From an uncultured cyanobacterium (GTDB lineage Bacteria > Cyanobacteriota > Cyanobacteriia > Cyanobacteriales > CAWCAG01): a stretch of 64,000 nucleotides of DNA. Both the position numbers and the translations under genes were made by a program. The stretch is taken from contig CAWDOD010000002.1 in NCBI GenBank assembly GCA_963803805.1, positions 416,001 through 480,000 of the forward strand, given 5' to 3'. Of this stretch, positions 8,425 through 55,323 are shown piece after piece. The number at the start of each line of letters is the position of its first letter. Within the stretch, counting starts at the first letter, position 1. The notes under the pieces were generated by a model, which saw nothing but the letters and a program-made list of their open reading frames with translations, was not told the origin of the DNA and ran no database searches.

Positions 8425-8532
8425 TGTTTACTTAACTGATTGTCTAGTTTATTTTATTAAGCTATTAGTTCCATGAGCATTTCCGGATTCCGATGTGGTT
8501 CTATGATAGTTGTCAGGTTGACCATCTTTGAT

Positions 8533-8690
8533 GGGAGCATCTCAGTTTTGCAGAAATAGTTTGTCTGTGAAATTAGCTATTAGCTATTAGCTGTTAGCTG
8601 TTAGCTTTAAGAATACATTTCTTGCTGCTTCAGTGAAGCTAATATCAAGTTGACGGCTAAAGCCTGTATTTACCAATTTGAGATGCTCCC
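8533..8690. mobile_element. MITE family A, copy 1 (158 bp)
   Basis: 12-bp TIR GGGAGCATCTCA/TGAGATGCTCCC and internal TTAGCTR heptamer repeats. Near-identical inverted copy at 26519-26669. Confidence 0.9.
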
Positions 8691-8938
8691 GTTTAAATGC
8701 ACATCAGCTTACCAATTTTATTTTACTGAGCCAAAGCGATCGCATCCACTTTCTACGAGTATCTTTAAACAGCTTTTTTCCCTATCATTCATTTTAATAA
8801 TCTACAGAAAAAACACTTTATATTTTAAAAATATAGCGTCGAATTTTATTATTTATCTAGTCTTTACCTAAGACATACAAAGGTTTAGGCACTTTCTGTT
8901 CTTAGCAAATCTAGCAGTTTAATTGTTGCTTATTCCTA

Positions 8939-9121
8939 GTTTGCGGCCGTGAAGCAAAATGCCGAAAAACCCTAGTTTTTCGTTGCCACGGCCGACCCTA
9001 GACTGTGAAAGGATTTCAGCCTCTTTTACCTAACTTTGTTTGTCTCTGAATTGCTTTATTTTTACTCACGGCCGCAAACCGCTTCTAGACATCAGGCAGG
9101 ATAAGGCTTTAGAATTAGGGG
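8939..9121 (+). promoter_or_regulatory. CRISPR leader 1
   Basis: About 180 bp closely matching 21144-21324; both end in TTTAGAATTAGGGG immediately before the first repeat. Confidence 0.9.
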
Positions 9122-10186
9122 GTAACGACTTCCATTAGGAAGTAAAGGAGTTGAAACAGATTCTGAGTATTTATATCATAGGCTATACTATCTATAGTAA
9201 CGACTTCCATTAGGAAGTAAAGGAGTTGAAACAACATTGATTTCAATATTTACAAAAGTTGATTTCATTGTAACGACTTCCATTAGGAAGTAAAGGAGTT
9301 GAAACTGAGGATGGACGTTACAGGTGTCTACCCAAGTAATGTAACGACTTCCATTAGGAAGTAAAGGAGTTGAAACGCTAAAAGGCTATTTGCCTGGGTG
9401 AATCTTCCTCGTCAGTAACGACTTCCATTAGGAAGTAAAGGAGTTGAAACTCTTTAGCGGCGGCATCCACTCTGTTCATTGCTTCTTGTAACGACTTCCA
9501 TTAGGAAGTAAAGGAGTTGAAACAGCCAGGGCATAAGAATCGGCTTCATCGTTTTTATGTAACGACTTCCATTAGGAAGTAAAGGAGTTGAAACCATCAG
9601 GATAATCTTCATCTACACTGACCGATATAACCCGTAACGACTTCCATTAGGAAGTAAAGGAGTTGAAACAACAAATCCAACAATCGCGGGGGACTTCTGG
9701 GTTGTCGTACCGTAACGACTTCCATTAGGAAGTAAAGGAGTTGAAACTTAGTAGCTGCATACCAGTTATCTTTATAATTATATGTAACGACTTCCATTAG
9801 GAAGTAAAGGAGTTGAAACTTAAAAAGGGGAGATGTGATAACGAAAATTCCTAATGGTAACGACTTCCATTAGGAAGTAAAGGAGTTGAAACCCAAGGAT
9901 ACCCTCATCAAAGGGAGGCGATAGCAGAAAGTAACGACTTCCATTAGGAAGTAAAGGAGTTGAAACATGATCACTATGTACTGGGTATGCTCTGTTTTAG
10001 TCTGGTAACGACTTCCATTAGGAAGTAAAGGAGTTGAAACAATGGTGTTAAAACATTGCATAATCAAGTTTTCTGAGTAACGACTTCCATTAGGAAGTAA
10101 AGGAGTTGAAACGGCAAATCTCGTAACCTTGTTGCTCCAATTTCTTAACAGTAGCAACTTCCCTTCAGAAGCAACCAAATTTTCAA
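9122..10186 (+). CRISPR. CRISPR array 1: 14 identical 36-nt repeats plus a degenerate terminal repeat; 14 spacers of 35-42 nt
   Basis: Repeat GTAACGACTTCCATTAGGAAGTAAAGGAGTTGAAAC at 9122, 9197, 9270 ... 10077. Degenerate copy GTAGCAACTTCCCTTCAGAAGC from 10151. Leader position and 3' GAAAC give + orientation. Confidence 0.98.
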
Positions 10187-11361
10187 CCACCCCTCCCACC
10201 AACCTGATAAAAACTCAGTAACTTCTCAACATTCAAAACCTGCTCCTCTGCCAAAAAAGAAGGCTCCTTAAAAATAGCCTTACCCAAAAAACGATTTACC
10301 CAATAGCCAAACTCCTTAAGAGAACGCTTAGGAAGCTTCAGTTTATAATCCAAATAGCTAAGCTCACCATCTGCATCCACTGGCCCTTTCCTAATCTCCT
10401 GAGAATCGTGACGCTTTTCCCCTTCTAAGATAAAAGGTATCGCTTCACCAAAAAAACGTACCCTAACCTTAACAAACTCTGCCTTCCCTTCTCTTTCACG
10501 CAACTGCTCTTCAAAATTGCCCAGATGAAGTCCCCAACCATTCTTGAGCAACTGCTTAGCAACCTCAAGACTAGCAAGCTGAACTTTAATTCCCCTAACC
10601 GCTTCGTTTAAAACTCGGAAGTGGTCATTAAAACGGTCTAACCTTGATATAGCTAAATGACCATCCTTATAGTTTTCGTGAAGAAGATACCAAGCGATAT
10701 CGTGATAAATTAACTGTAGAGGCCAAATCCTTTCATTAAAAAGACTTTGCCTTTTTTTACGAGGATTGCGGACACGTTTAATCTCTATACACTGCCCTTG
10801 TAGAATAGACTTCTCAATCTCTTCTAGTCTCTCGAACAAAGTACCTCTGTACTTGCCTTCCTTCATCATCTCTTCCGGACTAGTATAAACAATCACTCTA
10901 TTCAGTTGCGTTCTCACTGGATAATTAAACTCTTCCTCTAAGTTAAATAGCCTCAAACGCCTTTCTATCTTGCAATATGTTTGCCTTACTAAAGGATCTC
11001 CTTGATATTCCATCTGCGATCGCAAAGCATTAAGGGCTAAACGTAACTCCACCCTGTCTAAGGCTCCACTACCCAAATAGTAGCCCCAGCGATACATATC
11101 CCGTTCAAGAATACCGTAACAGCGTAGGGTAGCTAAATCCTTGCGTAGGGTATGAATTGAATAGGTAGGTAATTCTACTTCCAGTTCTCTAGCCACTTCT
11201 TGCATCATCAAAAGCACTTGTTCTAAAGGGTGTCGAACCGTAAGCAATTGATTATCTTTGCTACCAACCCCTGGATAACGAGCCAAGGTTGCAATCAAAA
11301 TCATCAACCTCTTGAAAGCTAGTAAATCACTATAGCGGTGGTAGATAGTTTTTTTCGTCAC
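10183..11361 (-). CDS. WYL-domain transcriptional regulator (HTH-WYL-WCX), CRISPR-associated
   Basis: N-terminal HTH-like YSIHTLRKDLATL, then WPLQLIYHDIAWYLL and RLDRF. Divergent from the cas operon. Confidence 0.88.
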   Translation of the reverse strand: MTKKTIYHRYSDLLAFKRLMILIATLARYPGVGSKDNQLLTVRHPLEQVLLMMQEVARELEVELPTYSIHTLRKDLATLRCYGILERDMYRWGYYLGSGALDRVELRLALNALRSQMEYQGDPLVRQTYCKIERRLRLFNLEEEFNYPVRTQLNRVIVYTSPEEMMKEGKYRGTLFERLEEIEKSILQGQCIEIKRVRNPRKKRQSLFNERIWPLQLIYHDIAWYLLHENYKDGHLAISRLDRFNDHFRVLNEAVRGIKVQLASLEVAKQLLKNGWGLHLGNFEEQLREREGKAEFVKVRVRFFGEAIPFILEGEKRHDSQEIRKGPVDADGELSYLDYKLKLPKRSLKEFGYWVNRFLGKAIFKEPSFLAEEQVLNVEKLLSFYQVGGRGG

Positions 11362-11575
11362 GAGAGTATGTCAAGGTAATAATAATATTGATTTTATTAA
11401 AAAATAATCTTTAAAAGCTTTATGGAGAAGGATTTTACAGTATTTTCAATAATCTAGACAAATATTATAATTTCCTGGGATTTCTCTATTACTTCTGATA
11501 GTATCTAAATTGAATAAAGCGAAAAGCGCTCTGGTCATCATCTCTAAACTGGAAAAACGACTCACGAAGTAAAAG

Positions 11576-13013
11576 ATGAAAACTTTAATCCTGCAAGTGT
11601 TAGGCAATAGTGATGTCCTTGTTGACTCCGATGAAGGAGCATCAAGACTACAAACAGCTTATACAGTAGAGAGAGGCCGAAGAAATAGCTCAGATGAACG
11701 ACGAGGAATTATTACCTGAACTAGAAAGAGTTGATTTTCCTCAAATTCGTCAAGTTTGGAATAATTATTCACAGCAAGAAGACGTTCATTTAGGGATTGT
11801 TTTAACAAAACAGAGCAGTTGGTTAAAAGACCACCAGAACCTGGAAAATCAAGCCATGCAAGAAATTATTGCCTCAGATGGCCATTGGTGGGGTAAAATT
11901 CTTCAAAGCTGGTGCAAACAACAGCAGATAAATTACCATCCTATCTATCTAGAAATTAATCCAGACATTCCCAAAGGTGCAGCCGATTGGGAGGGAATGG
12001 CGGAACTAGTTAATGTGCATTTTAATCAACTAGTTACCTGCAACAAGCAAGGACTTTTCTTTCAAAGTTCTCAAGACGAAAAAATAGAAATAGAAAAAAT
12101 CGTCATTCAACACAGTAGTGGTACTCCCGCTTTAAGTAGCGCCTTATATCTTTGGGGAATTGAACAAAAACTAGCTAAACAGACAATAGAATTTGTTTAT
12201 ATTTCTAAAGAAAACTCCCGTTACTATGCTCATCCAGGTGATCACTGGCGCTGGCGACTAAAAGTACCCCAAATTCAACAGCTAATTACTATTCAAGATT
12301 TTAGCGGTGTATTAGTAATTGCTGAAGACTATTTAGCTAAAGAGATTGAGCAGAAACTTAAGACCCTTGATTACGCTGTTTCTTTGAATGTAGCAGCTCT
12401 AAATCTAAACTTAGACCCCCAAGAAGAAGTTATCGAAAGGATGGCGATTGCACTATGGAGTGAACAAGCTTTCCGAGAGCGGGGGCAGTGGATGCACTGG
12501 TATATGAGAGTAGCAGGAGCTTTTGAGTTAGGGTTGTGGTGCTTAGTGGCGAAACAAAGTTCAGGTAGATATTACTGGCAAAGGGAAGGGGGAAAGCTTC
12601 AGTGCAGAGACTCAAGCAGCAATGGAAAATTTCTAGGTATTAACAAAGTAGTCAATCAACTCCTCAGCCAAGGTAATTGCGAGAACTACCAGGTTACTAA
12701 AATAGCCAACAACCCAGAATGGCATGATTTTAAACATTTTTACTGTAAAGATTGGGGAATAAACTCGAACACAGAAACAGCTTTTACCCACTTGCGTAAT
12801 AACCTTTATCACTCTTTGCAAGGGGACACAATCGACAAGCAACTAGACGAAGCAACTAAAAAATTTCATTCAGTGACTAACAAAAATCATCCCTCGGAAA
12901 TCGCCGTACACTGGCTAAGACAAATTATCTATTTAGCTGATCTACCGACTCAAGTCAATCAACGCATCAAGCACTATCAAAACTTAGCTTCAGAAGTACA
13001 GGAGAGCCTTTGA
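11576..13013 (+). CDS. Putative CARF-HEPN ribonuclease (divergent Csm6/Csx1-like), about 478 aa; +1 indel near 11668-11675
   Basis: Start MKTLILQVLGNSDV at 11576 joins the tracked ORF across an AG-repeat indel. CARF-like HSSGTPALSSAL and C-terminal RNNLYH (R-x4-H HEPN motif). Stop overlaps the cas10 start. Confidence 0.65.
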
Positions 13014-15254
13014 TGAAATTAGAAGCTTGGCTGCAACGTCAAAGAAAACTGTATCAGCAAGTACCCCAAGAAACTCCTACTTTCTCTATTCATCCTACTA
13101 GCGGAAAATGGCAAAAATCTCCTCACTTACGGTCGCAATTTTGGTGGGGAGGTGGTGCAACCCAAGAAACAGCTCAACAACTACAGCAAATAGATACAAA
13201 CTTAACCCAACTAGGAGTACTCACCTTTGGCCCAGTACAAACTTTCTTAGGTAGTGGTCAAAGACTAAGGGATTGGGCAGTAGGCTTTTGGTTATGCCAT
13301 TACCTTAGTGCAGTAATTATCTATCGTTGGGAACAACAAGGAGGCAAAGTATTGCTACCCTTGCATCGTTCTGTACCTCTAGTGCAATGGCTCAAAAAAC
13401 AACAGTTTCCTAGTGATGAATCTTTTTGGCAAGCAGAATTGCCCAATGTCTTCACAGGGATTTTTCCAGAGGAACAGGGATGGCTACAAAATCTCAAGAA
13501 CTTAGTACAGAGGGAATGGCATGACTTGATCCGTAGTTTAGAAAAATCTGCGAATCGCCTATGAGCCAAAACTGTTAGATGGGGTAGGATGGCAGGTGAT
13601 TCATGGAGACTGCAAATACCTCTGGTCATCCTACATCAGCCAAGCCCCCCTCGAATCAGGCAATTCAGAAGCTATCACAGCCACCTTAGCACAACTACAT
13701 CAACACTTAGAAGCTCAAAAAATAGGACGTAGCTGGCAAAAGCAGTGGTGGGCCGGTAAAACCAGTCCAAGTGCAGGACATCTTTCTATTTGGCATCCTG
13801 GCTTAAAGCCAATCAACAAAGGTGGCAAGTGGGGATTGCCAGAGGATCATTTAGAAAACTGGTGGGAAAAACTCGCTAAACGACAAGAAAGTCATCTGGC
13901 TGGTTTATTTTCTGAAAGTGACCGCCTCAACAGTTTGGAGATGATCAAACGCTTAGTATCTATACCAGATATTATCATTCCTACCTTAGCCAATCTGTGG
14001 GCTGACCGGGAACCTTTACCTCCTTGCCCTTGGGGCAGATTTCCTGACCGCACTGCTGCTGCTGCGGCTTGGATAGCTGATGCTGGAGTTGATCCTCTAG
14101 TTTGGAATCAAAACATCACTGCTTTAGAAAAAGACTATTTTTCTAACTCCTCTAATCAAATAAAGAAATGGGGAATGCCAAAGATAGACAGCAACAAACA
14201 GTTTAATCATCCCCGTGCCTTAGAACGACGCAATATCGAAGACAAGGAACTACTAGAAATTTGGGATAGTGAGCTACCCAAAGGCTGGGAAAGCACCATA
14301 GAATGGACTGTCGGCTGGCGAGGTGACGGGGATAAAGTGAGTGAGTGGCTTTCTGGAAAAAAATATGCTGACCTCAAGCTACTTTGGTCACAATGGCATC
14401 TTACCCCAGAAATCATTAACCAAGAAAACCTAGCAGTTACCCAGCCGGAAATACCATCTGACTCCAGACAAATAGATTTACCCCATATGCTGGATATTTC
14501 TGTACTTTTTGGGCTGTGGAATAAGTTACTCTATGCCATAACCGAAGAACATCACAACAGCAAGGTGATTTTTGCCGGAGGTGACGACTTTCTACTCCTT
14601 GGCCCCCTCACTGAGGCAATCCCCTTAACCAGCGAATTACATCACCTATGGGAAGGAAAAGGCACACCTATTACAAACCCTTTAACTACGCCAATTAATG
14701 GTTGGGTCAACTATCAAGACCAAGTGTATCCTGTTCCTGGACAACAAATGAGTTTTAGTTTGGGTTTGGTTATTGCTCAAAGACGTATTCCTCAATCTTT
14801 ATGGCATCGAGGTTTAAATTCTGCCTACAAAGAAGCAAAAAACAAGGGGCGCGATCGCGTTTGCGTGGAAGTACTTTTTAATAGTGGTCAATCATTGCAA
14901 TGGACTTGTCCTTGGCGTTTGTGGCACTTATTAATGGGAGTAGAAGCTCAACAGCAGGACAAGACAGAGTTGAATGTTTGGGAAAAGCTTCTGTTTTACC
15001 TAGAAACTACTAACTTAGAAGTCAACTCTGTTATCACAGTACGAGAACTCCTTGATACTCTTTGGGCTAGTGTAGGACTGCCTTTGCAATGGAAGCAAGT
15101 AGAAGAGTTAGCAACAGGCATGGATATACGTCAAGAAATTGGTTCTTGGCAATGGTGGAAAAATTGGTTGGCATTCCGTGCTTTTTTAGCCCGTCAAGCA
15201 AGAGAACGACAAAACTGGCTACAAAGATTGCAAGAGCAAGGAGCGAAACCTTGA
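13010..15254 (+). CDS. cas10: Type III-B Cas10/Cmr2, no HD domain; +1 indel at 13550-13558
   Basis: TFGPVQTFL...RLRDW (Cmr2 N-terminus), ELPNVF, GDGD and FAGGDDFL palm motifs. The two tracked ORFs fuse if GCGAATCGC is read as GCGATCGC. Confidence 0.9.
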
Positions 15255-16237
15255 CTAACTGGTATTCTATCACTCCTTCTAGTCCCCTAACTATTGGAAA
15301 CTTAACTCCTGTAGGGCAGAATAGCGGTCAAGTAGGCTGTCGCTGGCCCCCTAACGGTCATCATTTAGCTGCTTGTCTAAAACTAGATAAGAAAAATCAA
15401 CTCTGGGGGCCTTTTTGGTATCGAGGAGGTAATGAGTTCTATGTCACTTTACCTCTAACTGTTTACACCGTTGTTAAAGGGAAGCAAAGTTCTGAGCAGC
15501 TACCTAAGAATATGTATCGCTTGGTTTGGGATGACACAACAGGTATGTGGAGCAAGCAACCTGAACACCAAAAAGAAGAAATTGAAATTATTGGTGGTTG
15601 TTATCTAATTAATACACAAGCTTTGAGAAATTTTTGGCAATCAGGAAAAGTAGCTAATAACCCTTGTCTAGTAAAAATGCCTTGGGAAACTTTAACCCTT
15701 AGCCATAATAGCCGTGAAAATTTTCAAGTCAAAGATGAGGGAGGTTTCTTTGCTGAGATGACCACTTTGCTGGAACCGGGTTGGTCGATATTAGTAAAAA
15801 TTATTGGGGATGCAGAAGAAACACCAAAATTAAGCACCCTTGGTGCAGGGGGAACACCTGTAGTTATAAAGCCTGTAAATTCCCCAAAGTCCTGGGAGCA
15901 AATTGGTGAGAAAAAAGAGAATGCAATAGGAGCAATCCTACTGACTGGGGCTTTATGGCAGAAAGGAACTCAGCCTATTTCTTTGCCGTATCCCTACTCA
16001 AAAGTTAAAGCCTATGGTGCTGAAGAGCCTATCCCTTGGCAATCCTGGAAAAAGGTGCGCGATCGCAAAGAACCTAACAATAGTGACAACAAAGTCAAGG
16101 TTTTAACACCAGGGGAATGGTTAACTCCTCCAGGGGCAGTTTATTTGTGGCAGGAGGCAACTACTGGTCAATCAGGGCCCTTTCCTGACCCTTTTCATCG
16201 GGATGCTTTAGGTTATGGTCACTTGTGGTTATTTTGA
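15251..16237 (+). CDS. cmr3: Cmr3 (Cas5 group)
   Basis: Likely TTG start overlapping the cas10 stop. WPPNG, LWGPFW, LGAGG, PPGAVY and terminal LGYG loop. Confidence 0.8.
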   Translation: MTNWYSITPSSPLTIGNLTPVGQNSGQVGCRWPPNGHHLAACLKLDKKNQLWGPFWYRGGNEFYVTLPLTVYTVVKGKQSSEQLPKNMYRLVWDDTTGMWSKQPEHQKEEIEIIGGCYLINTQALRNFWQSGKVANNPCLVKMPWETLTLSHNSRENFQVKDEGGFFAEMTTLLEPGWSILVKIIGDAEETPKLSTLGAGGTPVVIKPVNSPKSWEQIGEKKENAIGAILLTGALWQKGTQPISLPYPYSKVKAYGAEEPIPWQSWKKVRDRKEPNNSDNKVKVLTPGEWLTPPGAVYLWQEATTGQSGPFPDPFHRDALGYGHLWLF

Positions 16238-16249
16238 GGATAAACATTA

Positions 16250-17036
16250 ATGTCTATAGAATGGTTAATTTGTCAAGAACCAGTGCATATTGGTGGAGCT
16301 GATAGTAGTTCTAGGGGAAATAATAACCCTGTCTTTCGTCTTCCAGACCGTAGCCCAGCTATTCCTGGTAGCTCCTTACGAGGGGCTTTAAGGGAACACG
16401 CCAAGGCAGATAGTAAATATAAAGGATATGTAGATAATTGGTTTGGAGGAGAAGGAGAAAGTATTTCCCCTGGTTGTATTTCCCTTAGTTGGGGCTGGCC
16501 CAGTATGGTGGCCTGTTCATGTCCTTGGTTATGGAAGTTGGTGGGTTAGTTGTCTAAGTTGGTTAAACCGCTTTCGACAGTTATCCGGTGAGAATGCCCT
16601 TAACTTAGAATCTAACAAGGTTTACATTACTCAATCAGAATTGAAAGATCAGACTATTTTCTTGCGATGGTTAAAGCTAACTAATGTAGATTACCCAGAA
16701 TATAGCTTACCAGCCCCTACAGACATACCTAAAGATCGTCGAATTATTGTTCCAGATGACAGCATTAATCTTTTAGTTGACATGGGAATAGTACGACAGC
16801 CAAGAGTAAGTCTCCGGGATGAACCTGACAAAGACGGCTCATTGGTAGAGCATCTTTTTGCAGTGGAAGGGTTTCCTCCTGGTGCAGTCTTTAGTTTGTC
16901 TTGGGCTATTAGAGGAGAAGAAGTTAAGGACCCTCAAAAATGGTCAGAGTTTTTACATAACGAGCATTTCCTCGGTGGCTTGTGGAGTGTAGGCTATGGA
17001 CGCATTAATGTTGTTGCTGTTGAGGGAGGGAAGTGA
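16250..17036 (+). CDS. cmr4: Cmr4 (Cas7 group RAMP); +1 indel near 16497-16502
   Basis: PVHIGG...PAIPGSSLRGALR...WFG, then PVWWPV, LFAVEGFP and LGGLWSVGYGR G-rich loop once the two ORFs are joined. Confidence 0.85.
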
Positions 17037-17464
17037 TGGGAGTCATTCACTATGAGTTGGATAAGAAAGTATTTGAAAAACTTAAGCAAGGTAAAGAAAC
17101 CTTAAAAGACTGGCAAGGGGCTGCTAGTGGTATTGCTGACTACGTGGCTAGCTGGGGCTTGGAAAGGTTTTGGGCAATGTCGCGATCGCCTGTTCTTAAG
17201 GAAGGGAGTATTCCAGAAGCTGATGCTGGAAAGAATGAGGAAAGACGTTATTTTGCTTGGGATGTGGCTAGGTTAGTTCTGTGTGAATTGATTCGCGATG
17301 AGTTAAATATAAGCTCAGATATGACTACCCAAGAGTTTCAGGAACAGCTAGCCAAACTCAATTTTAATGAGCAGGTTTTGCTAGCAGATTTGCTAATGGA
17401 GATTTCTGCCACTATTCAGTTTTGGACAATGCGTCTTAGGGATGCTAAAGACAAGGAGGTTTGA
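17033..17464 (+). CDS. cmr5: Cmr5 / Cas11 small subunit (putative)
   Basis: 143-aa helical protein between cmr4 and the RAMP fusion; YVASWGLERFW and terminal IQFW. Confidence 0.65.
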   Translation: MMGVIHYELDKKVFEKLKQGKETLKDWQGAASGIADYVASWGLERFWAMSRSPVLKEGSIPEADAGKNEERRYFAWDVARLVLCELIRDELNISSDMTTQEFQEQLAKLNFNEQVLLADLLMEISATIQFWTMRLRDAKDKEV

Positions 17465-17520
17465 TTCGACTCAACAATCAAAAGCTAATAGTTTAGAAAA
17501 ATATTTGAGGAGTAAATTTT

Positions 17521-19110
17521 ATGAGTAAAAGTTCAACTTTACCGACACAAAGACCCAAATGGTATGATGTTCAAGCTACCAATGATGGAAGGGAAGAATA
17601 TAGAGGTTGGACACCACAAACTAGTGACATTGTTGCTGCAAAAAAGGAAAATCATGATGTCGTTTATGCTTGGAATGGTGATTATTCCCCCCACCCAGCC
17701 AAAGATTATACAGTGAAGCTAGACAGGCTTAAGGTTATCAGTCCTATTCAAATTGGCGGTGACAGCTTTTTTGAAGGTGGGACTTTACCAGCTCAGGTTG
17801 GTGGTGTACCTTGGATACCTGGTTCTAGTGTTCGGGGAGCTTTGCTCAACTGGTTGCATCAGCAATGGGTTAATCTGAAGACAGAGGAACAAAGGTTTTG
17901 GTTAACTCTGATGAGTTCTGATCGCAAGAGTTGGCAACCGAAGAAGATTCGTTTTGAGAGTGTTTTGTTGAAGGAGCTTCGACCCTTTCCCCTCAACCCT
18001 CAACAGAAATGGCAGGTTTTCGACGACCCTAAAAGCAGGAAAAAGCTTGGTATACAGTGGCAAGTTGCCCCGAAACACCCTCCTAATCCTTATGCTGCGG
18101 ATAAGTTTACTTTGCAAGTGTTGCTAAAAGATTCACCGACAGAGGAGGAGAAAAAATTCTTAGAGACTGCTTTAGTGACCATGCTAGAAGAGCAGGGAGT
18201 TGGCCGAGGTACAAAGAGTGGTTTTGGTCGCTTGGCTCAGAAAGTTCCTTCAGGAAAGTGGGAAATTAAGCTAGAAGGAATGAAACCTTGCTATCAAGTT
18301 CATAACAATTCTGAAAACATAACTGGTAAGTATCGCTGGAGTCCCCAAGTCTTGAGGGCTAGCTTAAGGGGCTATTTTCTCCGTTTAGCTTTGAGGATAC
18401 TGGAAAAAAAAGATGCACAAAAACTTACTAGTACTATTTTTGGAGAGCTAAAATCCCCTGCTCGATTAGTGTTAACTAGCTATCTTAAGCCAATCAGCAG
18501 ACAAAATTTTGGTACAAAATCAGATAGGAACTATGGCAATATGCCTGCTAAAGAACCCCATGAAGTTTGGCTAATTGATGTGGATTGCAACTCACCATTC
18601 CAAGATTTGATTGGTCATCTGTTAGAGTTAGCCAGTCGCTTAGGAGGGCTTGGCCCCGGTTGGCGCAGACCTCCTCATGTTATGAGTCACAACGTTTTCC
18701 GAGGTAGCCAGTTTTCTTACACTCCCGATTTTTCCAATTTAAACTTATCTGATCTGATTGCTCATTTACTAAGTTTACTCAAGGAGTTAGCAAGGCAAAA
18801 TAATCTTGCTTTGCTGTCTCCAGTTGAGCCTAGCAAGATAAATTCCTCTCCGAGGGCAGCTAGAGAGCTAATCAAAGGAGCCTTGTTAAGCATTTGGCAG
18901 GGAAAAAAAGAGCAATGGCGAGAGATTGTTCATGGAGTTTGTAGTACTAGCAAGGGTGCAGATAAACCAGGTTGGTGTGGTAGTACGAATGAGCGTACTT
19001 CTGGTTATGCAGTAAGAGAGTATGAAGATTATTGCTTGATTTCTGTTTTTGATTCGGAGGTAGAAGGCACTTTGCAAGACGAGGAATTTGAGAAAATTTG
19101 GTCTGGTTGA
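17521..19110 (+). CDS. Double-RAMP Cmr6-Cmr1 fusion
   Basis: RAMP 1: PWIPGSSVRGAL...GVGRGTKSGFG. RAMP 2: PQVLRASLRGYFLR...IFG...LGGLGPGWRR. Such a fusion characterises subtype III-Bv. Confidence 0.8.
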   Translation: MSKSSTLPTQRPKWYDVQATNDGREEYRGWTPQTSDIVAAKKENHDVVYAWNGDYSPHPAKDYTVKLDRLKVISPIQIGGDSFFEGGTLPAQVGGVPWIPGSSVRGALLNWLHQQWVNLKTEEQRFWLTLMSSDRKSWQPKKIRFESVLLKELRPFPLNPQQKWQVFDDPKSRKKLGIQWQVAPKHPPNPYAADKFTLQVLLKDSPTEEEKKFLETALVTMLEEQGVGRGTKSGFGRLAQKVPSGKWEIKLEGMKPCYQVHNNSENITGKYRWSPQVLRASLRGYFLRLALRILEKKDAQKLTSTIFGELKSPARLVLTSYLKPISRQNFGTKSDRNYGNMPAKEPHEVWLIDVDCNSPFQDLIGHLLELASRLGGLGPGWRRPPHVMSHNVFRGSQFSYTPDFSNLNLSDLIAHLLSLLKELARQNNLALLSPVEPSKINSSPRAARELIKGALLSIWQGKKEQWREIVHGVCSTSKGADKPGWCGSTNERTSGYAVREYEDYCLISVFDSEVEGTLQDEEFEKIWSG

Positions 19111-19194
19111 GGTACTTTGCTTTGCATTAATTCTGGTTGTGATTTTGGAAAAGCAAGCTTAGGGTATACAGGAAATAGTAGGAGAGAAATTGAG

Positions 19195-19560
19195 GTGCTG
19201 AAAAAATCTACTAACTTATTAGCCATGGTTGCGATCGCACTAGGAATAGAATTGTTTTCCTACCTGCTTCAGAAACAGCTAGTACCAGAAACAAAAGAAG
19301 TTATATTACTGCCCTCTCAAGGCATTACTAAGCTTACTAATAACACAGGTACTCTTGAGTCTAGTGCCAGTTTAGCTTCACCTAATGTAGGTGTAGAGAA
19401 AAATGAAGGTTTGTTTGCCTGTCTAGAAACTGACTGCAATTGCTCTGATTTTAGCACTCAAGCAGAAGCAAAAGCTGTACTGGATGCAGAACCAGGAGAT
19501 CCACATCGTCTAGATGCGAACGGTGATGGTATTCCCTGTGAAAGTCTAAGTAATAGGTAA
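19195..19560 (+). CDS. Membrane-anchored/secreted Excalibur calcium-binding domain protein
   Basis: Probable GTG start at 19195, hydrophobic N-terminal segment, C-terminal DCNCSDFSTQAEA...DPHRLDANGDGIPCESL. Confidence 0.8.
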   Translation: MLKKSTNLLAMVAIALGIELFSYLLQKQLVPETKEVILLPSQGITKLTNNTGTLESSASLASPNVGVEKNEGLFACLETDCNCSDFSTQAEAKAVLDAEPGDPHRLDANGDGIPCESLSNR

Positions 19561-19595
19561 ATTGAATTGTAAAATCAGGAATTAGTCAGGGAAAA

Positions 19596-19865
19596 ATGTT
19601 TATCTCATCTCGTGCTGCACAAGTGCGTAGCCTTCTCGTAGCATCTATTAACGGTAGTATTACCTTAATTATTTTACTCATTGCCCCTTTAGGTCTAGCA
19701 GCAGTGATTATCAACACTCTGCTAGTAACCCTTGCCAGCTATGGAATGTCTCAGACAGTAGATAAAGTGATAGTTTGGCTATCTTTATCTTTTAATCCAA
19801 CTACTGACTCTCATACCCATAATCGAGTTGCAAGTAAAAGTAAAATAATGAAGAAGAGATTATGA
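19596..19865 (+). CDS. csx18: CRISPR-associated membrane protein Csx18
   Basis: INGSITLIILLIAPLGLAAVIINT two-TM signature; stop overlaps the cas1 start. Confidence 0.75.
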   Translation: MFISSRAAQVRSLLVASINGSITLIILLIAPLGLAAVIINTLLVTLASYGMSQTVDKVIVWLSLSFNPTTDSHTHNRVASKSKIMKKRL

Positions 19866-20855
19866 GGACTTTGTATGTGTCCCAGCAGGGATGCTATGTT
19901 TCCCTTTGCCAAGAAATTTTGAGAGTTAAAAAAGGAGATACAACCTATGCTGAGGTAAAGTTACCTCTGATAGAGCAGCTCCTCATCTTTGGGAAATCCC
20001 AAATTACAACTCAAGCTATCCATGCTTGTCTATGGCGTAATATTCCTATTGCTTATCTTTCTCGGATGGGCTACTGTTACGGGAAAGTTACTTCTATCAA
20101 GAAAGGATATCGCTATCTATCTAAATATCAACAGGAGCTAAACTTTGCTGATAGATTTAGAGTAGCTAAGGCAATTGTACAAGCGAAGTTAAAAAACAGT
20201 CAGGTTCTTTTGAGGAGGCAATCACGAAAACATGAATCAGCAGAAGTTACTAAGGTAATAGAGAACCTAAACTACTACGCTTGTCGAGCTAAAGAAGCTA
20301 ACTCTTTGGAGCAGTTAATGGGCTTTGAAGGAGCAGGTGCAGCAGAGTATTTTTCTATTTTAGGGCAATTTTTTTCTCAAAAAGACTTTGTATTTACCGC
20401 TCGGACTCGCCGTCCACCAAGGAATGAGGTCAATGCAATGCTTAGCTTTGGCTATCAAGTTATTTGGAATCATCTTTTAGCATTAATAGAGTTAAATGAT
20501 CTCTGATCCTTATCAAGCCTGTTTGCATCAGGGGACGGAGCGTCATGCTGCTCTAGCTAGTGATTTGATAGAAGAATTTCGAGGGCCTATGGTCGATTCT
20601 TTAGTTTTATATTTGATTAATCGCCAAATCATAAAAGTCAATAAAGATTTTCTTTTTGAGAATGGTATCTGTCACCTCAATAACTCCGGAAGAAAAAAGT
20701 ATTTGCAGAGCTTCGTTAATAAGATGGAGGAATCAGTTTCTACTTCTGAAGGTGGCAACATTCCTAGATGGAGCTTGCTTAATCAACAGGTGAAGATGTA
20801 CAAACAGTTTGTTTATCAACCTAGTTCTATCTATAAACCGTTTCGTATTCGATGA
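19862..20855 (+). CDS. cas1: Cas1, about 330 aa; +1 indel near 20501-20504
   Basis: TLYVSQQG, LMGFEGAGAAEYF, RRPPRNEVNAMLSFGY, then DPYQACLH...ALASDLIEEFR in the next frame. Confidence 0.93.
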
Positions 20856-21136
20856 GCTATATTTTTTACGTAGTTACTTATGATATTTCTGTTGACAAAA
20901 GACGTAAAAAAGTTTCGGATTTATTAGAAGGATATGGACAGAGGGTTCAATATAGTGTGTTTGAATGTTTTCTAAATCAGGCAAAGTTCATTGAATTATG
21001 TTCTCGAATGGAAAAACATATTGAGATATCAGAAGATAGCATTAGATTTTATCCTTTATCTAAATCCAGCTTAAGCTGTGTAAAGGTTTGGGGAGATCCT
21101 CCTATTAGTAAACCAAGAGGTTCAACTGTTGTTTAG
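20852..21136 (+). CDS. cas2: Cas2
   Basis: YVVTYDIS...RRKKV...YGQRVQYSVFEC...DSIRFY. Confidence 0.97.
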   Translation: MSYIFYVVTYDISVDKRRKKVSDLLEGYGQRVQYSVFECFLNQAKFIELCSRMEKHIEISEDSIRFYPLSKSSLSCVKVWGDPPISKPRGSTVV

Positions 21137-21143
21137 TAGTGAC

Positions 21144-21324
21144 TTGCGGCCGTGTCGCAAAATGCCGAAAAACCCTAGTTTTTCGTTGGCACGGCCGACC
21201 TTAGACTGTGAAAGGATTTCAGCCTCTTTTGCCTATCTTTGTTTGTCTCTGAATTACTTTGTTTTTACTCACGGCCGCAAACCGCTTCTAGACAGTAGGC
21301 TAGGTAAGGCTTTAGAATTAGGGG
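21144..21324 (+). promoter_or_regulatory. CRISPR leader 2
   Basis: Lies between cas2 and the first repeat; near-copy of leader 1. Confidence 0.9.
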
Positions 21325-22550
21325 GTAACGACTTCCACTAGGAAGTAAAGGAGTTGAAACGCAAATTAGAAACGCTAAAGATTATTGTAGTTGAATCGTA
21401 ACGACTTCCACTAGGAAGTAAAGGAGTTGAAACATAACAACTTACTTCTGACCAAATTTTTCCTATATCTTGTAACGACTTCCACTAGGAAGTAAAGGAG
21501 TTGAAACTCCAGTGGTCATTCTTATTATTCTCTGGCAGCGGAATCTATAGAAGAGTAACGACTTCCACTAGGAAGTAAAGGAGTTGAAACTTTTTGGTTC
21601 AATCCTGCTAAACACCCATTGCCAAATAGCGCGGCGGGTAACGACTTCCACTAGGAAGTAAAGGAGTTGAAACACTTTTGTATTACACGCATCTATACTC
21701 TTTTACTATGTAACGACTTCCACTAGGAAGTAAAGGAGTTGAAACGTTAATTGCTCAGCCGAAGTTTCAGTTAATCTAAAGTAACGACTTCCACTAGGAA
21801 GTAAAGGAGTTGAAACAAATTTAATTTGTTAGTCATGGTTTGTTGTCCTTGATTTTGTGTAACGACTTCCACTAGGAAGTAAAGGAGTTGAAACTATATA
21901 TCATGTGCTGTAATGTTGATAGCAGTCCATAGTAACGACTTCCACTAGGAAGTAAAGGAGTTGAAACTTTATTTCTAATGTAAGAAATTAAATTATTTTC
22001 AACTTGTAACGACTTCCACTAGGAAGTAAAGGAGTTGAAACACCCATGTTTCAATGTCTATGTAGTACCATCCTTCAGAGTAACGACTTCCACTAGGAAG
22101 TAAAGGAGTTGAAACCTGAAAGTAATCTATTTTTACTTCTTTGGAGGTAACTTTTTTTTGTAACGACTTCCACTAGGAAGTAAAGGAGTTGAAACTTTGA
22201 GTTTTCAAAAGCCTGATTAGTTTGCTCTACCTCGTAACGACTTCCACTAGGAAGTAAAGGAGTTGAAACTGGAGATAGGTTAATTGTGCTTATTGAAGAG
22301 TAGTTTGAGCGTAACGACTTCCACTAGGAAGTAAAGGAGTTGAAACAAGCATCAACAAACCCTTCTAAGAAAATTGAGATTTTGTAACGACTTCCACTAG
22401 GAAGTAAAGGAGTTGAAACTACAGATTATTCAGGAGTGTCAATTTCATAAATGACCGTAACGACTTCCACTAGGAAGTAAAGGAGTTGAAACCTGCATTT
22501 GTCAAAGTTCTATTGGCGAAAGAAGGAATGTAACGACTTCCACTAGGAAG
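21325..22550 (+). CRISPR. CRISPR array 2: 16 identical 36-nt repeats plus a 21-nt truncated terminal repeat; 16 spacers of 35-47 nt
   Basis: Repeat GTAACGACTTCCACTAGGAAGTAAAGGAGTTGAAAC at 21325, 21398 ... 22457; truncated copy at 22530-22550. Confidence 0.98.
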
Positions 22551-22626
22551 CTAATCTGCTTTCCCACTGCCAAAGCCCTTGACAGATTGCATTTTGGCTT
22601 AACTTCTCACCAATGACCATTAACTA

Positions 22627-23286
22627 TTACCAACTTGGTAAATTTTGGGGAGAACTTGTAGCGCGAGAGAGATTATCTTTGGCTGGTTGGTAACTAAAAT
22701 CAAGTTCGGTGGCAACGCGATAATTTTTGATTCCTTCTAAGGGATTCCCTGTGGTTTCTTGTAGCATACCCAGCAAATTAAAGGCTTCTGGGCGAGAAGG
22801 ATCTATACCGATCGCTTTTTTGGTTTGAGCGATCGCACCCTCAAATTCCCTTTTTCTTGCCTCGTTTTTAGCCGCTTTTAAGCAAGATTCATACTTAGAT
22901 ATTGATTCTTTTTCTGAAGTACTTTCTTCTAAGATTCTGTAGACTAAATTCCGCAATTCTTTGGGTGTAAAAGGCTTTTGCAGAAAGTCTACCGCCCCCA
23001 GTTTCATCGCTTCTACGGCATTGTCTACAGTACCGTGGGCCGAAATAAGCGCAATTTTAATCTCTGGATAAAGTTCTGTGGCCTTTTCTAAAAGTTCCAT
23101 ACCATTCATCCCTGGCATTTGTAAATCTGTGAGGATGAGGTCAAACTTTTCTGCTTGTAGTTGATACAAAGCATCTTTGCCATCAAAGGCAGTATGCACT
23201 TTATATCCCAAAGGATCAAGGGCTGTAGCCACAGTTAAACGAATGTTTTTTTCATCATCAACCACAAGAATTTTAGCTTTAGACAT
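22627..23286 (-). CDS. Response regulator (REC plus TPR-like C-terminus)
   Basis: ILVVDDE, LILTDLQMPGMNG, FLQKPF; C-terminal AIGIDPSRPEAFNLLG. Confidence 0.9.
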   Translation of the reverse strand: MSKAKILVVDDEKNIRLTVATALDPLGYKVHTAFDGKDALYQLQAEKFDLILTDLQMPGMNGMELLEKATELYPEIKIALISAHGTVDNAVEAMKLGAVDFLQKPFTPKELRNLVYRILEESTSEKESISKYESCLKAAKNEARKREFEGAIAQTKKAIGIDPSRPEAFNLLGMLQETTGNPLEGIKNYRVATELDFSYQPAKDNLSRATSSPQNLPSW

Positions 23287-25771: not shown

Positions 25772-26470
25772 TTATTCCTCTGAAAAAGAGCGACCAGATA
25801 GTTTTTCGACAAAGCTTTGATGCTCAGGAGAATTTAATCCCTGTTGTAAAGTTGCTAACAACTTAGCTAAATCTCCTTTAATTAAAGGTTCTTTGTTTAA
25901 CCACAAACCAGGAAAATATTCACTACAAACAATACCTTCTTCATTGGGTTGAAGTTTAATATATTTACCTTCTCTTAATCGAAACCAATCCAATTCTCCA
26001 TCATAAACTCGCCAAACTAAATATTCTTGAACTTGATTGCGTCGGTAAGCTTTTAATTTGTCGTGTAAGTCAATAGAAGCTGTGCTAGCAGAGATTTCGA
26101 CAATTAATTCTGGCGCACCTTCTATATAATCTTCTTCGCTAATAGTTGATTGTCCATTTTCAGTAATTCTTAATAAAGCGTCGGGTTGAGGTTCATTTTC
26201 TGCATCAAGGCGTACCGTACAATTGTCTCCTACTTCAACTCCTGGTGTAGCTGACCAATATGTAAATAACCAACCCATAATAAGGGCATGAGGTTTTCCA
26301 TGTTGAGTAAATCTTAAAGGGGATGCCATATAAACTATTCCTTCAATTAGTTCCGCTTTTTTAACATGAGGCATTTGTTCATAGCGCTGTTCAAATTCAA
26401 AGCGAGTAAGTTGGTCCCCATTTTCTAGGGGAGGAATGGTTTTTATTAGTGTTAAAGTATTTTGCGGCAT
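25772..26470 (-). CDS. Uma2 family endonuclease-like protein
   Basis: PPLENGDQL, AELIEG, PQPD, APELIVEIS, KLKAY. Confidence 0.9.
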   Translation of the reverse strand: MPQNTLTLIKTIPPLENGDQLTRFEFEQRYEQMPHVKKAELIEGIVYMASPLRFTQHGKPHALIMGWLFTYWSATPGVEVGDNCTVRLDAENEPQPDALLRITENGQSTISEEDYIEGAPELIVEISASTASIDLHDKLKAYRRNQVQEYLVWRVYDGELDWFRLREGKYIKLQPNEEGIVCSEYFPGLWLNKEPLIKGDLAKLLATLQQGLNSPEHQSFVEKLSGRSFSEE

Positions 26471-26807: not shown

Positions 26808-29800
26808 CTAATCAAGAACAGCTAAAGCACCTGCACTTGCAGAGGCGATCGCAGAAATAAAAGCAGTAAAGAAGAGCCACCAAGAGGCCGCAGCAGCAGC
26901 TTTGCGGGTTTCATCTGCCTGTTTTTGTGCCTGCAACTTAGCTTCTTCTATACGAGCAGCCGTCTGTTGTTGCAAACGCTCTGCCCTTTGTAAGACGCGG
27001 TTACGAGTACTTTCGATTTGCTCGATGGTACGATTAGCCTGAGCTTCTGAGATATCATCACGGGAACTCAACAGAGCAACTAAGGTATCGCGGTCGAATT
27101 GCGAGAGGCGATCGCGCAGGGCATCAAAACCAGCTTCGGGATCATCAAATAAGGTGGTTACATCCCTTTTAATACCTTCGTAGTTAAGTTCAGGACGCTC
27201 TAAACTATTGAGGTAGGCACGAATCCGCTCAAAGATGCTGTCAACAATGGATTGCAGCTTAGACTGAACCATCTTAAATTGATTGAGGAATTGATCCCGT
27301 ACCTCAACAATGTTATCTACAATGCGATTAACATCTTCTTCGGAAACATCGTCCCTTTGAGACAACAAGGCAACTAAGGTAGAACGATCAAAAGCAGCTA
27401 GGCGTTCTTTTAAACTTTGCGCTCCTAAACGGGGGTCATTAAGCAGTAGTTGTAGGTCGTATTTAATGCCTTCCGGACTGAGTTCTGCTTTATCTGTAGA
27501 GCGCAAGTAATCACCAATTGCACCTTGAAAGTCCTGTACTTTGCTTTGGGCGCGGCTGGCAATGCGGCGAGGGGCTTTAACAATGCTACGCAGAGTCCCC
27601 TGCACCTCATCAATTACTTGATTGATTTGTGCTTCATCCAGGTCATCTCGTTGGTTCAGCAACTGTACTAAGGTGTCGCGATCCATAGCCGCTATGCGCC
27701 TTTGAATGGCTTTCCCCCCTGCTTGAGGGTCATCAAACAGTTTAGCTAAATCTCGCTTAATACCATCAGGGTTAAGCTCTGCTTTCCCCGTATTGCGTAG
27801 ATAATCGGTAACAGCGGAGGTTGCTTTGTCGTATTGTTCCTGGGCTTTGCCAACCAACTTTTTCGGACTACGACGAACGCGAGTCCAATTTTTTTCAACT
27901 TGATTAATGGCTTGGTGAACTTGCTCTTCGCTGAGGTCGTTACGTTGGGTAAGCAACTGCACTAAGGTATCACGATCAAAACGAGAGGCACGCTGGCGTA
28001 AGGCACTCATTCCAACTTGAGGATCATCAAGAAGTAGTTTTAGTTCCCGTTCAATTGCCTGGGGATTTAACTCATTTTTACCCGTATCTCGCAAAAAGGA
28101 TTGTACCTTGCGCCATTGTTCGTCAGCTTTAGCCTTTGCTGCCCCCAAGGTTTCTTGAGATTCTTGCAGAACTCGTCCTTTAGCTTCTTCTAAATAGACG
28201 ATGATCTGAGCTTTTTCATGGGGTTCTAAGTCAGAACGTTGGTCTAAAATACGCTCAAAGGTAGGACGGTCAAATTGAGCAAGGCGGCTGTTAAGCTGCT
28301 CGTAGTCTAGATCCGAGTTTTCTAATATTGGTTTGAAGTTAAGCTGAATTCTTTCTGGGGTAAGCTCTTCAATAGGAGTAGCAAGTAAGTACTGTTCTAC
28401 CTCTGCTAACAAAGCAATTTGTGCTTCCCGTCCATGGGCTGCTTGGGCTGTTGCTAAGGCTTCTAGACGAATAGATTCTAGCAAATTGGCAATGCTATTA
28501 ATTTTGTCTTGAGTGTAAATCCCTTTTTCTTGGAGTAAATCAACAAAATCAGCACGGCTGATTTCCTCTAATTCCTGAGCAACTGCTTCTGGATCAGCAT
28601 CTGGATCGTAAATTACGTCCCTGAATTCTCGCTCTACAATTCCAGGCTTAAGCTGCCAAGAATAGGCGTTGAGGATGTAATTCTCAATATCTGCTTTTAC
28701 TAAGCTATCTGCTGCTTCCTCACTGCTGCTAGAGGTGATAGCTCCTTTTTCTGTTAACTGGTCTTTTGCCATACGCAACTTGACGAGCAACTTTTTCAGC
28801 ATCAAAGTCAGAAAGGTCAGTACGCCCCATTACCATACCTACTAGGCTATTTATGCCAGTGGTAAGAGCTTGAGAAATGGGACCTGTGGACTCTTGATTT
28901 TCTTGGGATTGGCGACTCTGGCGCAATTCATCAACCAAATCACCTAGCTTATTAGTAAACTCATCTCCTACTAAGCTACTCGGAGCAGCAGACTTAACAT
29001 AATCAACTAATTCACCAAGAGGATCTCTGCGTTGAGGTAATTTATCTACAGTTTTTCGCCAAACTGATTCTAAGGTAGCAGCAAGTTTCTCTGTCTCCCT
29101 CTTAGATAAGTCGCTACGTTCACTAACTAAATCGACAAAGGTTTGTCTATCTATGTCCCGGAGACTATCCGCTTCTGTAAGCTCTTGTAATTTAGGGTCA
29201 TTAAGCAGGGATTCCATTTCTGCACTAACCCGTTGTAGATTCTAGTTGAGGAGGGCGTATGGTTCCTAAGTAATCTTCTAGCTTTTCTTTAACCATGTCA
29301 GGGTCTACGGCTGAAGCCAGTTCCCGACGCACAGCAGCAGCGGCCGCTTCTGCTGTAGCTACTACTTTGTTACTAGCCGCGTCTCCTACCCATAACAGCA
29401 GCAGCAGTTCCTACCAAAGCTTGGAAACCGGATGTTGCTGTATTAACTACTGAACCCACGAGGGAACCAACGGTGGTAGAACTTACCCACACTAGAAGGC
29501 AAAAGTAAGTTGCCCAAATTACCAAACCCAGAATGGCTCCTGTAGCAGGTACTTCTAATAAACTAAGCTTAATAGCTAAAAAACAAGCAAAGAATAGGGA
29601 GAGGGTGACGCTAATTAGAGTTGCTAGTCCTAAGGCAAAGCCAATTTTACGGATTGTACTTCCGAAACTATCTGAACTACCAGAGTCGGAATCCGAATCA
29701 GAAGAGCCTCCAGCTAAAGAAATTCCGGTGGCAACACCTAGATTGGTTAGAAGTAATTGGAAGGCGAAGGCTAAAACTAAACCAGCAATAAGAGCCATAA

Positions 29801-55197: not shown

Positions 55198-55323
55198 AAG
55201 ACCCCTCACCTGCTATGGCATCACGAAAGCAGCATCAAAAATGACTCTATCAATTTGAGAATAAGAGTGCAAACTTATGATTATGTAACAACATAAGTTT
55301 TGTTAGTCAACCAGACTATCTTC

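Follow-up and report, generated by a model that had tools for sequence, protein, structure and literature searches.

A cyanobacterial type III-B variant CRISPR locus that may sense RNA and signal rather than cut

The 64,000-nt window analysed here, from an uncultured cyanobacterium (positions 416,001 to 480,000 of contig CAWDOD010000002.1, assembly GCA_963803805.1), carries a type III-B CRISPR unit at 8879-22552 whose effector complex has probably lost both of its cutting activities, leaving defence to a small-molecule alarm and a neighbouring RNA-degrading enzyme. The original prediction for this DNA had placed the locus at 8939-22550 and proposed that it senses RNA and signals rather than cuts. 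The locus is there, the true unit being slightly wider, from the start of the leader of array A to the degenerate final repeat of array B, and the proposal is supported by the sequence in the form of a Cas10 without an HD nuclease domain, a Cmr4 without the slicer aspartate, and a CARF-HEPN gene leading the operon. Because these traits are conserved across the family, signalling without cutting is the best reading of the sequence, and we consider it reasonably probable that the locus is an intact member of a cyanobacterial type III-B variant clade that works in this way. Assignment to type III-B, also predicted, follows from a Cas10 of the Cmr2 kind and genes for Cmr3, Cmr4, Cmr5 and Cmr6 in one operon, together with the Cmr1 half of a fusion protein. 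The effector operon, in window coordinates, is as follows.

11576-13013, + strand: gene for a Csm6-like CARF-HEPN effector (PADLOC CARF_HEPN, E 5.3e-15; extra base at 11672)
13013-15254, + strand: cas10/cmr2, HD-less, with GGDD (Pfam and PADLOC; extra base at 13553, which splits GCGATCGC)
15251-16237, + strand: cmr3 (PADLOC Cmr3, E 6.5e-17)
16250-17036, + strand: cmr4, backbone subunit with Asn at the slicer-Asp position (PADLOC and Pfam; extra base at 16499)
17033-17464, + strand: cmr5, small subunit (PADLOC PDLC01186, "Cmr5gr11, new subfamily", E 3.6e-64)
17521-19110, + strand: Cmr6(N)-Cmr1(C) fusion of 529 residues (Pfam RAMP families, hhalign and predicted model)

A search at E <= 1e-5 gave 108 relatives of the fused RAMP protein (90%-identity clusters), and 31 related loci were fetched in one scan, 29 of them titled as cyanobacteria and two as metagenome-assembled genomes with other labels. 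The order CARF-HEPN, cas10, cmr3, cmr4, cmr5 is kept in the 26 loci that hold cas10, with the CARF-HEPN gene directly upstream of cas10 in 24 and the contig edge reached in the other two; the genes of these relatives are unbroken, each in one frame. Across an even sample of the phylum the fusion is present in 8 of 401 genomes and 7 of 156 genera. The genome under study holds a second family copy, with proteins 65-80% identical, on contig C1 (160 kb, with ParA/ParB), and a PF22335 search of the genome returned no Cas10 of this kind beyond the window and C1 copies; the two remaining matches, considered as further Cas10 proteins, proved to be GGDEF/EAL proteins.

The assembled Cas10 is read in two pieces. 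Pfam Cmr2_N starts at residue 70 of the first, with only 69 residues before it (PF12469 E 8.3e-12, PF22335 E 4.3e-9), and the two pieces match the PADLOC Cas10b profile PDLC02053 (717 positions) at 2-175 and 191-716, with 267 and 795 bits. With the upstream gene ending at 13013 and the profile matched from one end to the other, an HD domain has no room to fit. For comparison we used 17 sequences, namely 16 single-frame orthologues (from 18 anchored open reading frames (ORFs), those of 832 and 351 residues being dropped) and the C1 paralogue. No HD motif was found in the window protein and no conserved N-terminal HD motif among the 17; GGDD is present in the window Cas10 and in all 17 full-length sequences. 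Near-invariant columns number 224 and take in a GWRGDGD motif that precedes GGDD by about 84 residues. With GGDD and the upstream GDGD both kept, the protein looks competent as a cyclase. A four-cysteine zinc finger is a general feature of Cas10 proteins. CxxC occurs in 0 of the 17 sequences, in which only four Cys columns are conserved, and these lie far apart. The Cas10 thus agrees with its earlier description as starting at the Cmr2-N region, lacking HD, retaining GGDD and showing no evident zinc-finger cysteines. Loss of HD alone is ordinary, since most type III loci have a Cas10 without that domain: the HD domain is reported in only 39% of 1113 such loci and the cyclase in 92% (PMC11229360).

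Less ordinary is Cmr4, in which the expected Asp had been noted as missing. Where slicers carry D-x-P the window protein reads RGNNNPVFR. We aligned a profile of 15 orthologues with Pyrococcus furiosus Cmr4, with alignments to Csm3 and another Cmr4 in agreement; since Pro27 of the family aligns with Pro28 of P. furiosus, the D26 column is family position 25. It holds Asn in the window protein and the C1 paralogue, and among 26 orthologues Asn in 23, Thr in 1, Arg in 2 and Asp in none. Among the best 150 of 366 representatives the column is Asp in 92, a gap in 30, Leu in 14, Asn in 8 and other residues in 6, and within these 150 the sequences with a non-acidic residue are the top-scoring relatives of the family profile, the Synechocystis type included. 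Synechocystis Cmr4 itself aligns with the family by hhalign (probability 98.9, E 1e-17), and as it holds Leu in the D26 column, this characterised variant system (type III-Bv) appears to have lost the slicer Asp as well. A further Cmr4 clade, which we denote by its motif GNLNLIFRD (P0238-P0243, P0252, P0267, P0269), also carries Leu for the slicer Asp and scores between this family and canonical Cmr4.

The consequence of such a substitution can be gauged from P. furiosus, where D26A abolishes cleavage (PMC4333402) and D26N, the residue natural to the window Cmr4, in vitro prevents target cleavage but leaves DNase activity in place; the same mutant complexes were assayed for cyclic oligoadenylate (cOA) synthesis, and dependence on GGDD was reported (PMC7192623). 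No mention of an Asp-less Cmr4 in III-Bv systems or in cyanobacteria was found in the literature searched, which did not extend to supplements or to Behler et al. 2018, and the absence of the slicer Asp across the family and super-family, in combination with loss of HD, appears to be new.

The CARF-HEPN-like gene does lead the operon, as had been recognised, its true start being 11576 and not 11694. QHSSGTPAL and R-N-x-L-x-H (R410...H415) are invariant in 16 of 16 aligned sequences. All those of the 146 relatives that have a source name are called hypothetical protein, none has a precomputed Pfam domain, and the protein Atlas contains neither the sequence nor a homologue; the family profile found no match at E <= 10 among the sequences of solved structures, and hhalign against two Synechocystis III-D CARF proteins aligned only the local RNxLxH motif (probability 0.2). 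A model of the protein was predicted with a local distance difference test score (pLDDT) of 87.5. Over residues 1-481 it lies nearest to Streptococcus thermophilus Csm6' (Z 15.9, 327-333 aligned) and Enterococcus italicus Csm6 (Z 15.8, 357 aligned), with Foldseek E values of 5.4e-7 to 1.7e-5 against Csm6 structures solved with cyclic hexa-adenylate (cA6) or an analogue; taken separately, the CARF part (1-228) scores Z 13.4 and residues 229-481, the HEPN part, score Z 12.9. The modelled protein shares with these two cA6-dependent type III-A enzymes an N-terminal CARF domain, a C-terminal HEPN domain with Rx4H, and superposition over the full length, but identity in the structural alignment is only 15-16%, and the effector here sits in a type III-B operon.

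The original prediction also held that no recognisable ring nuclease was present and that, with no obvious off-switch, the system would be of a dormancy or abortive-infection design. On the first part, Csx3 (PF09620) and Cas_APE2256 (PF09651) were searched for and neither has a match in the genome; the PF09620 search was also without a match in control genomes, and Crn2, Crn4 and Csx15/16/20 were outside the search. A missing match to these two families does not exclude an off-switch, and the Csm6-like fold suggests a possible intrinsic one. Taken by itself, the modelled CARF part is similar to stand-alone ring nucleases as well (Z 13.4). All Csm6 proteins studied are reported to possess intrinsic cA6 ring-nuclease activity, and most systems using cyclic tetra-adenylate or cA6 to have some route to degrade the activator (PMC12830947). 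Because the effector folds like cA6-type Csm6, described as degrading its own activator and so as self-limiting, the claim that there is no off-switch is unsupported; judging from the model, the effector may limit itself through its own ring-nuclease activity.

The fusion of Cmr6 and Cmr1 that had been proposed was borne out by matches to its predicted model (pLDDT 69.5; predicted template-modelling score 0.70) and by hhalign. Residues 245-529 correspond to Cmr1, matching Archaeoglobus fulgidus structures with Z 16.8 (245 aligned, root-mean-square deviation 3.9) and Z 15.9 and P. furiosus with Z 13.1, and residues 39/61-241 to Cmr6 (Z 8.4-8.8), giving an N-terminal Cmr6 and a C-terminal Cmr1. 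Against the Synechocystis fusion hhalign gave a probability of 97.9 (E 4.9e-13), with homology across both modules. Searches of solved structures with the fusion and with Cas10 returned weak matches only, and no close relative of the complex appears to have been solved. In a plasmid collection the fusion protein matched only Synechocystis sp. B12.

The type III-Bv class was defined by a Cmr1-Cmr6 fusion and the absence of cas6 from the cassette (PMC6546367), and the window locus has this gene content. The prediction had likened the locus to the III-Bv system, CRISPR3 of Synechocystis sp. PCC 6803 (plasmid pSYSA), and the likeness holds for several features: both systems have the fusion, a cassette without cas6 and a Cmr4 lacking the slicer Asp (Leu in Synechocystis), their csx18-cas1-cas2 modules share 54-65% identity, and their repeats, 36 nt long, combine a 5' hairpin with a single-stranded tail that ends in GAAAC. 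The relationship is nevertheless distant: identity between the effector proteins is only 22-28%, Cas10 of Synechocystis is 979 residues long with an N-terminal HD motif where the window Cas10 has 746 and none, no CARF-HEPN gene lies beside the Synechocystis cas10, and a peptidase gene lies inside that cassette. The arrays of the window, and their leaders, are listed here.

8879-9121, + strand: leader of array A, duplicating the sequence upstream of array B together with the cas2 3' end (direct repeat D3)
9122-10112, + strand: CRISPR array A, 14 repeats (36 nt each) and 13 spacers that are 35-42 nt long
21137-21324, + strand: leader of array B, part of direct repeat D3
21325-22552, + strand: CRISPR array B, 16 full repeats and one degenerate last repeat

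The repeats of both arrays are perfectly conserved and the spacers unique, with one base changed in the repeat loop of array B relative to array A (T to C). The 36-nt repeat folds at nt 7-22 into a hairpin of 6 bp, and the 14 nt after it form a single-stranded tail; in agreement with the impression that it differs from the Synechocystis CRISPR3 repeat, its sequence is different, while the architecture is alike, the hairpin there lying at nt 2-18. Across the repeats of the family a 5-bp stem covaries (27 cells changed on both sides, where shuffles gave 10.4 and none of 500 came as high), and the tail AAAGGxGyTGAAAC is conserved. Scans with NCBIfam, Pfam and PADLOC found no cas6 in the 64,000-nt window, and 126 ORFs of at least 130 residues, otherwise unexplained, from the flanks of the 31 related loci gave 0 matches to Cas6 at E <= 1e-8. 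The prediction that the system is Cas6-less therefore stands for the locus and the flanks of its relatives, but not for the genome, in which three Cas6 models detected a single protein, Cas6d, encoded in a type I-D locus on a different contig (C10:322.6 kb, PADLOC E 3.5e-141). A Cas6 elsewhere in the genome is, to the letter, one of the findings that the prediction had named as refuting it. The cassette to which this Cas6d belongs, at C10:322.6-331.4 kb (L008:10598-19427), encodes Cas3d, Cas10d, Cas7d, Cas5d and Cas6d, and neither adaptation genes nor an array turned up in the 20 kb scanned. The genome also has an RNase E gene. In Synechocystis III-Bv, RNase E has been demonstrated to cut 13/14 nt from the 3' end of the repeat, downstream of the hairpin, with RNase J helping (PMC12464536), and the system is described as independent of two non-cognate Cas6 enzymes (PMC6546367). 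Maturation by a host RNase is a reasonable inference here, the repeat architecture being compatible with it.

Taken together, the following scheme may be proposed. From the orientation of repeats and leaders, both arrays would be transcribed on the + strand, and the precursor would be cut by a host RNase, by analogy RNase E, in the A-rich tail 3' of the hairpin to give CRISPR RNAs (crRNAs) with a 5' handle of about 13-14 nt. Gene content and folds suggest that these would be loaded into a complex of HD-less Cas10, Cmr3, Cmr4, Cmr5 and the Cmr6/Cmr1 fusion. Binding of a complementary transcript would activate the palm/cyclase of Cas10 to make cOA, possibly cA6, and this would switch on the co-transcribed CARF-HEPN protein, whose fold and motifs are those expected of a Csm6-like RNase. 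With Asn in Cmr4 and no HD domain in Cas10, the complex itself would neither slice its target RNA nor cut DNA, and shut-off would come from ring-nuclease activity of the effector's CARF domain and turnover of the bound transcript.

Four of the genes are split in the assembly, the CARF-HEPN gene, cas10, cmr4 and cas1, each by a one-base insertion. The prediction had called for the indels to be corrected. We compared 8800-22600 (13.8 kb) with contigs assembled independently from a public sequencing run, X1. These are one base shorter at precisely 11672, 13553, 16499 and 20503 and otherwise free of indels over the 13.8 kb; with the four bases removed, the genes read as single stop-free ORFs of 478 (CARF-HEPN), 746 (cas10), 261 (cmr4) and 330 (cas1) residues, lengths that agree with those of the orthologues. 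All four insertions lie at or within 3 nt of GATC or GGCC, as do only about 3% of the positions of the region, and that at 13553 converts GCGATCGC to GCGAATCGC. Extra single bases at methylated sites are typical of consensus errors in long-read assemblies. As the insertions are missing from the X1 contigs and located at GATC/GGCC sites, the frame breaks are probably assembly errors, an artefact being clearly the better explanation.

Several observations weigh against the picture drawn so far, and those that concern the frames would be explained if the locus and its C1 paralogue were decaying pseudogene clusters, the frameshifts real and the intact X1 version derived from another strain. Between the X1 contigs and the window there are about 40 substitutions over the 13.8 kb, none near methylation motifs, so X1 may indeed be another strain and the breaks in the window may be real. 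The breaks are, moreover, locally enriched, clustering in the two type III loci with none evident in the other approximately 50 kb of the window, where large genes look whole, and the C1 locus has four frame switches of its own (two in cmr3, one in cmr4 and one in the fusion gene), only two of them near GATC/GGCC. Insertion variants of HIP1 are rare genome-wide: GCGAATCGC occurs in 17 copies, where control 9-mers have a median of 5 and a maximum of 44, a modest excess and too weak a signal to settle the matter either way. On the other hand, decay would scarcely produce four changes that are all +1 insertions at or beside GATC/GGCC, a pattern improbable by chance and of the very kind that long-read consensus errors leave; removal of the four bases leaves no stop codon or other lesion behind, and both arrays keep perfect repeats and unique spacers. 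We therefore regard decay as unlikely, though it deserves to be taken seriously, and prefer to read the window locus as intact. Separately, at 26808-29217 (- strand) two ORFs of 665 and 162 residues overlap by 77 nt in different frames, with no GATC/GGCC at the overlap, and another frame break might have divided a single gene into this pair.

Other objections concern what an intact system would do. If slicing were to persist through another acidic residue, either D18 of Cmr4 or one from a neighbouring subunit, the locus would be an ordinary HD-less type III-B system with a Csm6-type effector and the usual timer. D18, in the motif GGAD, lies in the same loop of Cmr4 seven residues upstream, is invariant in 15 of 15 aligned sequences and could conceivably substitute for the absent Asp; in the alignments canonical Csm3 and Cmr4 are acidic in that part of the loop as well, and the Synechocystis crRNAs of 42 and 48 nt fit the usual 6-nt ruler (PMC12464536). 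Slicer-dead mutants are, in addition, harmful in two archaea: attempts to bring D26N into wild-type P. furiosus failed, with lethality suspected, a strain being obtainable only with the HD domain and Csx1 also inactivated (PMC7192623), and RNase-dead Cmr4 leads to dormancy or death in Sulfolobus islandicus (PMC9368842). A natural slicer-dead state would need a compensating feature. Against this, the exact D26N change kills cleavage by the P. furiosus complex despite other acidic residues nearby, the D26 column is never acidic in the family (0 of 26), varying among Asn, Thr and Arg as if freed from catalytic constraint, and two sister clades, Synechocystis among them, hold Leu there. Retained slicing is in our estimate improbable, to about the same degree as decay. 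The identity of the signal is a further point. Csm6-2 effectors are reported to travel with CorA. Four relatives have genes for CorA-like membrane proteins (PADLOC PDLC01175) directly upstream of the CARF-HEPN gene, at L013:18429-20666, L017:10527-12905, L027:2075-3547 and L033:19994-21601, and with these neighbours another signal is possible. There remains the maturation step. The repeat ends in GTTGAAAC, which presumably resembles the 8-nt tag of Cas6-processed repeats, and a Cas6d is encoded in the genome; were this enzyme to act in trans, cutting 8 nt from the 3' end of the repeat to leave a GTTGAAAC handle, the system would not be truly independent of Cas6. The hairpin, however, ends 14 nt and not 8 nt from the 3' end, none of the 31 related loci has a cas6 within 10 kb, and the Synechocystis system is reported to work without non-cognate Cas6 enzymes (PMC6546367). 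From this analysis, service by Cas6d is unlikely, and we give it less credence than either decay or retained slicing.

If the locus does signal without cutting, the interest lies in how it is switched off, given that target-RNA cleavage by Cmr4/Csm3 is regarded as the off-timer of type III systems. We tentatively extend the proposal, as one a little more apt to be wrong than right, to a cyanobacterial super-clade comprising the window family, the GNLNLIFRD clade and Synechocystis III-Bv, which would be naturally without slicing and whose HD-less branch would be a pure RNA sensor with a second messenger as its sole output. Since the pure-sensor state is harmful when engineered in archaea, such systems must hold a way both to avoid self-activation and to end the alarm; candidate safeguards are stringent use of a long 5' handle with the Cmr6/Cmr1 fusion, a self-limiting Csm6 and turnover of transcripts by host RNases. 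If this is true, a natural family would show how immunity is run by signalling alone, and how it is kept safe. Synechocystis III-Bv shares the absence of the slicer Asp and is genetically tractable, which makes the question directly testable, and a non-cutting, Cas6-independent RNA sensor may serve in RNA detection. Much else is ordinary: HD-less Cas10 is common, the gene families have profile models, and the Cas6-less trait is known from Synechocystis. The clade is widespread, with no bench study so far.

An HD-less type III system with NucC as its effector reportedly cleaves target RNA. Likened by its description alone, the system of PMC8682760 resembles the present one in having an HD-less Cas10 that relies on a cOA-activated effector, and differs in that the effector is NucC and not a CARF-HEPN protein. 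Compared with the canonical III-B Cmr system of P. furiosus, the window locus has the same set of subunits and a CARF-HEPN RNase (Csx1 there), but P. furiosus has an HD domain, separate Cmr1 and Cmr6, and Cas6. Again by description alone, III-B clusters 3 and 5 of Microcystis aeruginosa FACHB-524 are similar in having a shorter Cas10 and a long "Cmr6" without a recognised Cmr1; in that paper only cluster 4 of the strain, with a long Cas10 and a Synechocystis-like repeat, was tested, co-expressed with a Cas6 (PMC11855584).

The remaining genes of the unit are a divergent regulator and an adaptation module.

10183-11361, - strand: helix-turn-helix (HTH)-WYL regulator, divergent from the operon (PADLOC WYL/Csx1 PDLC01036, E 3.8e-40; weak Pfam WYL match)
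19117-19560, + strand: small protein with a C-terminal Excalibur domain (Pfam PF05901, E 1.3e-6)
19596-19865, + strand: csx18, small hydrophobic protein tied to adaptation genes (NCBIfam NF040558, E 2.4e-26; PADLOC Csx18)
19862-20855, + strand: cas1 (profile matches; extra base at 20503 between two GATC sites)
20852-21136, + strand: cas2 (NCBIfam TIGR01573, E 3.4e-16; Pfam PF09827)

The likely start of cmr3 is the TTG at 15251, which overlaps the cas10 stop as TTGA; the orthologues begin to align at residues 52-58 of the longer ORF. The C1 paralogue of the HTH-WYL regulator is 74% identical and has a weak match to a DeoR-type HTH, and the Excalibur gene occupies the same place beside csx18-cas1-cas2 in one related locus (L027). 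The direct repeat D3 (8879-9157 versus 21082-21360) is 87% identical, and the leader of array A, in which a promoter-like site lies at 9086-9115 (consensus match only), opens with a copy of about the last 55 nt of cas2 (8879-8933 versus 21082-21136). Because its leader starts with this copy, array A probably arose by duplication of a unit of cas2 end, leader and array. The spacers of both arrays had no match at E <= 0.01 in a phage collection and no convincing match in their own genome (best 17-21 nt at E 0.006-0.008), and an Rfam scan of 8500-23000 returned no family at gathering score.

The C1 locus, at L003:7216-16344 with arrays in L002, L003 and L004, encodes an intact Cas10 of 740 residues and has five small arrays with a near-identical repeat. 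Elsewhere on C1, at 129-135 kb (L005:9187-15080), a 658-residue fusion of reverse transcriptase and Cas1 and a separate Cas1 lie beside arrays with a different repeat, GTTCACCAATTACC..., with no effector genes in the 20 kb examined. Cas12k-like and Cas12f/TnpB-like ORFs occur within 10 kb of two related loci (L031:11717-12967 and L034:8568-9893). The remainder of the window consists of ordinary chromosomal genes, among them further defence-like genes, namely a C-5 cytosine methylase followed by an ORF of 499 residues at 49720-52289 (+ strand), and two Uma2-family genes and a PIN-domain gene at 25772-26470 (- strand), 39991-40758 (- strand) and 55300-55926 (+ strand).

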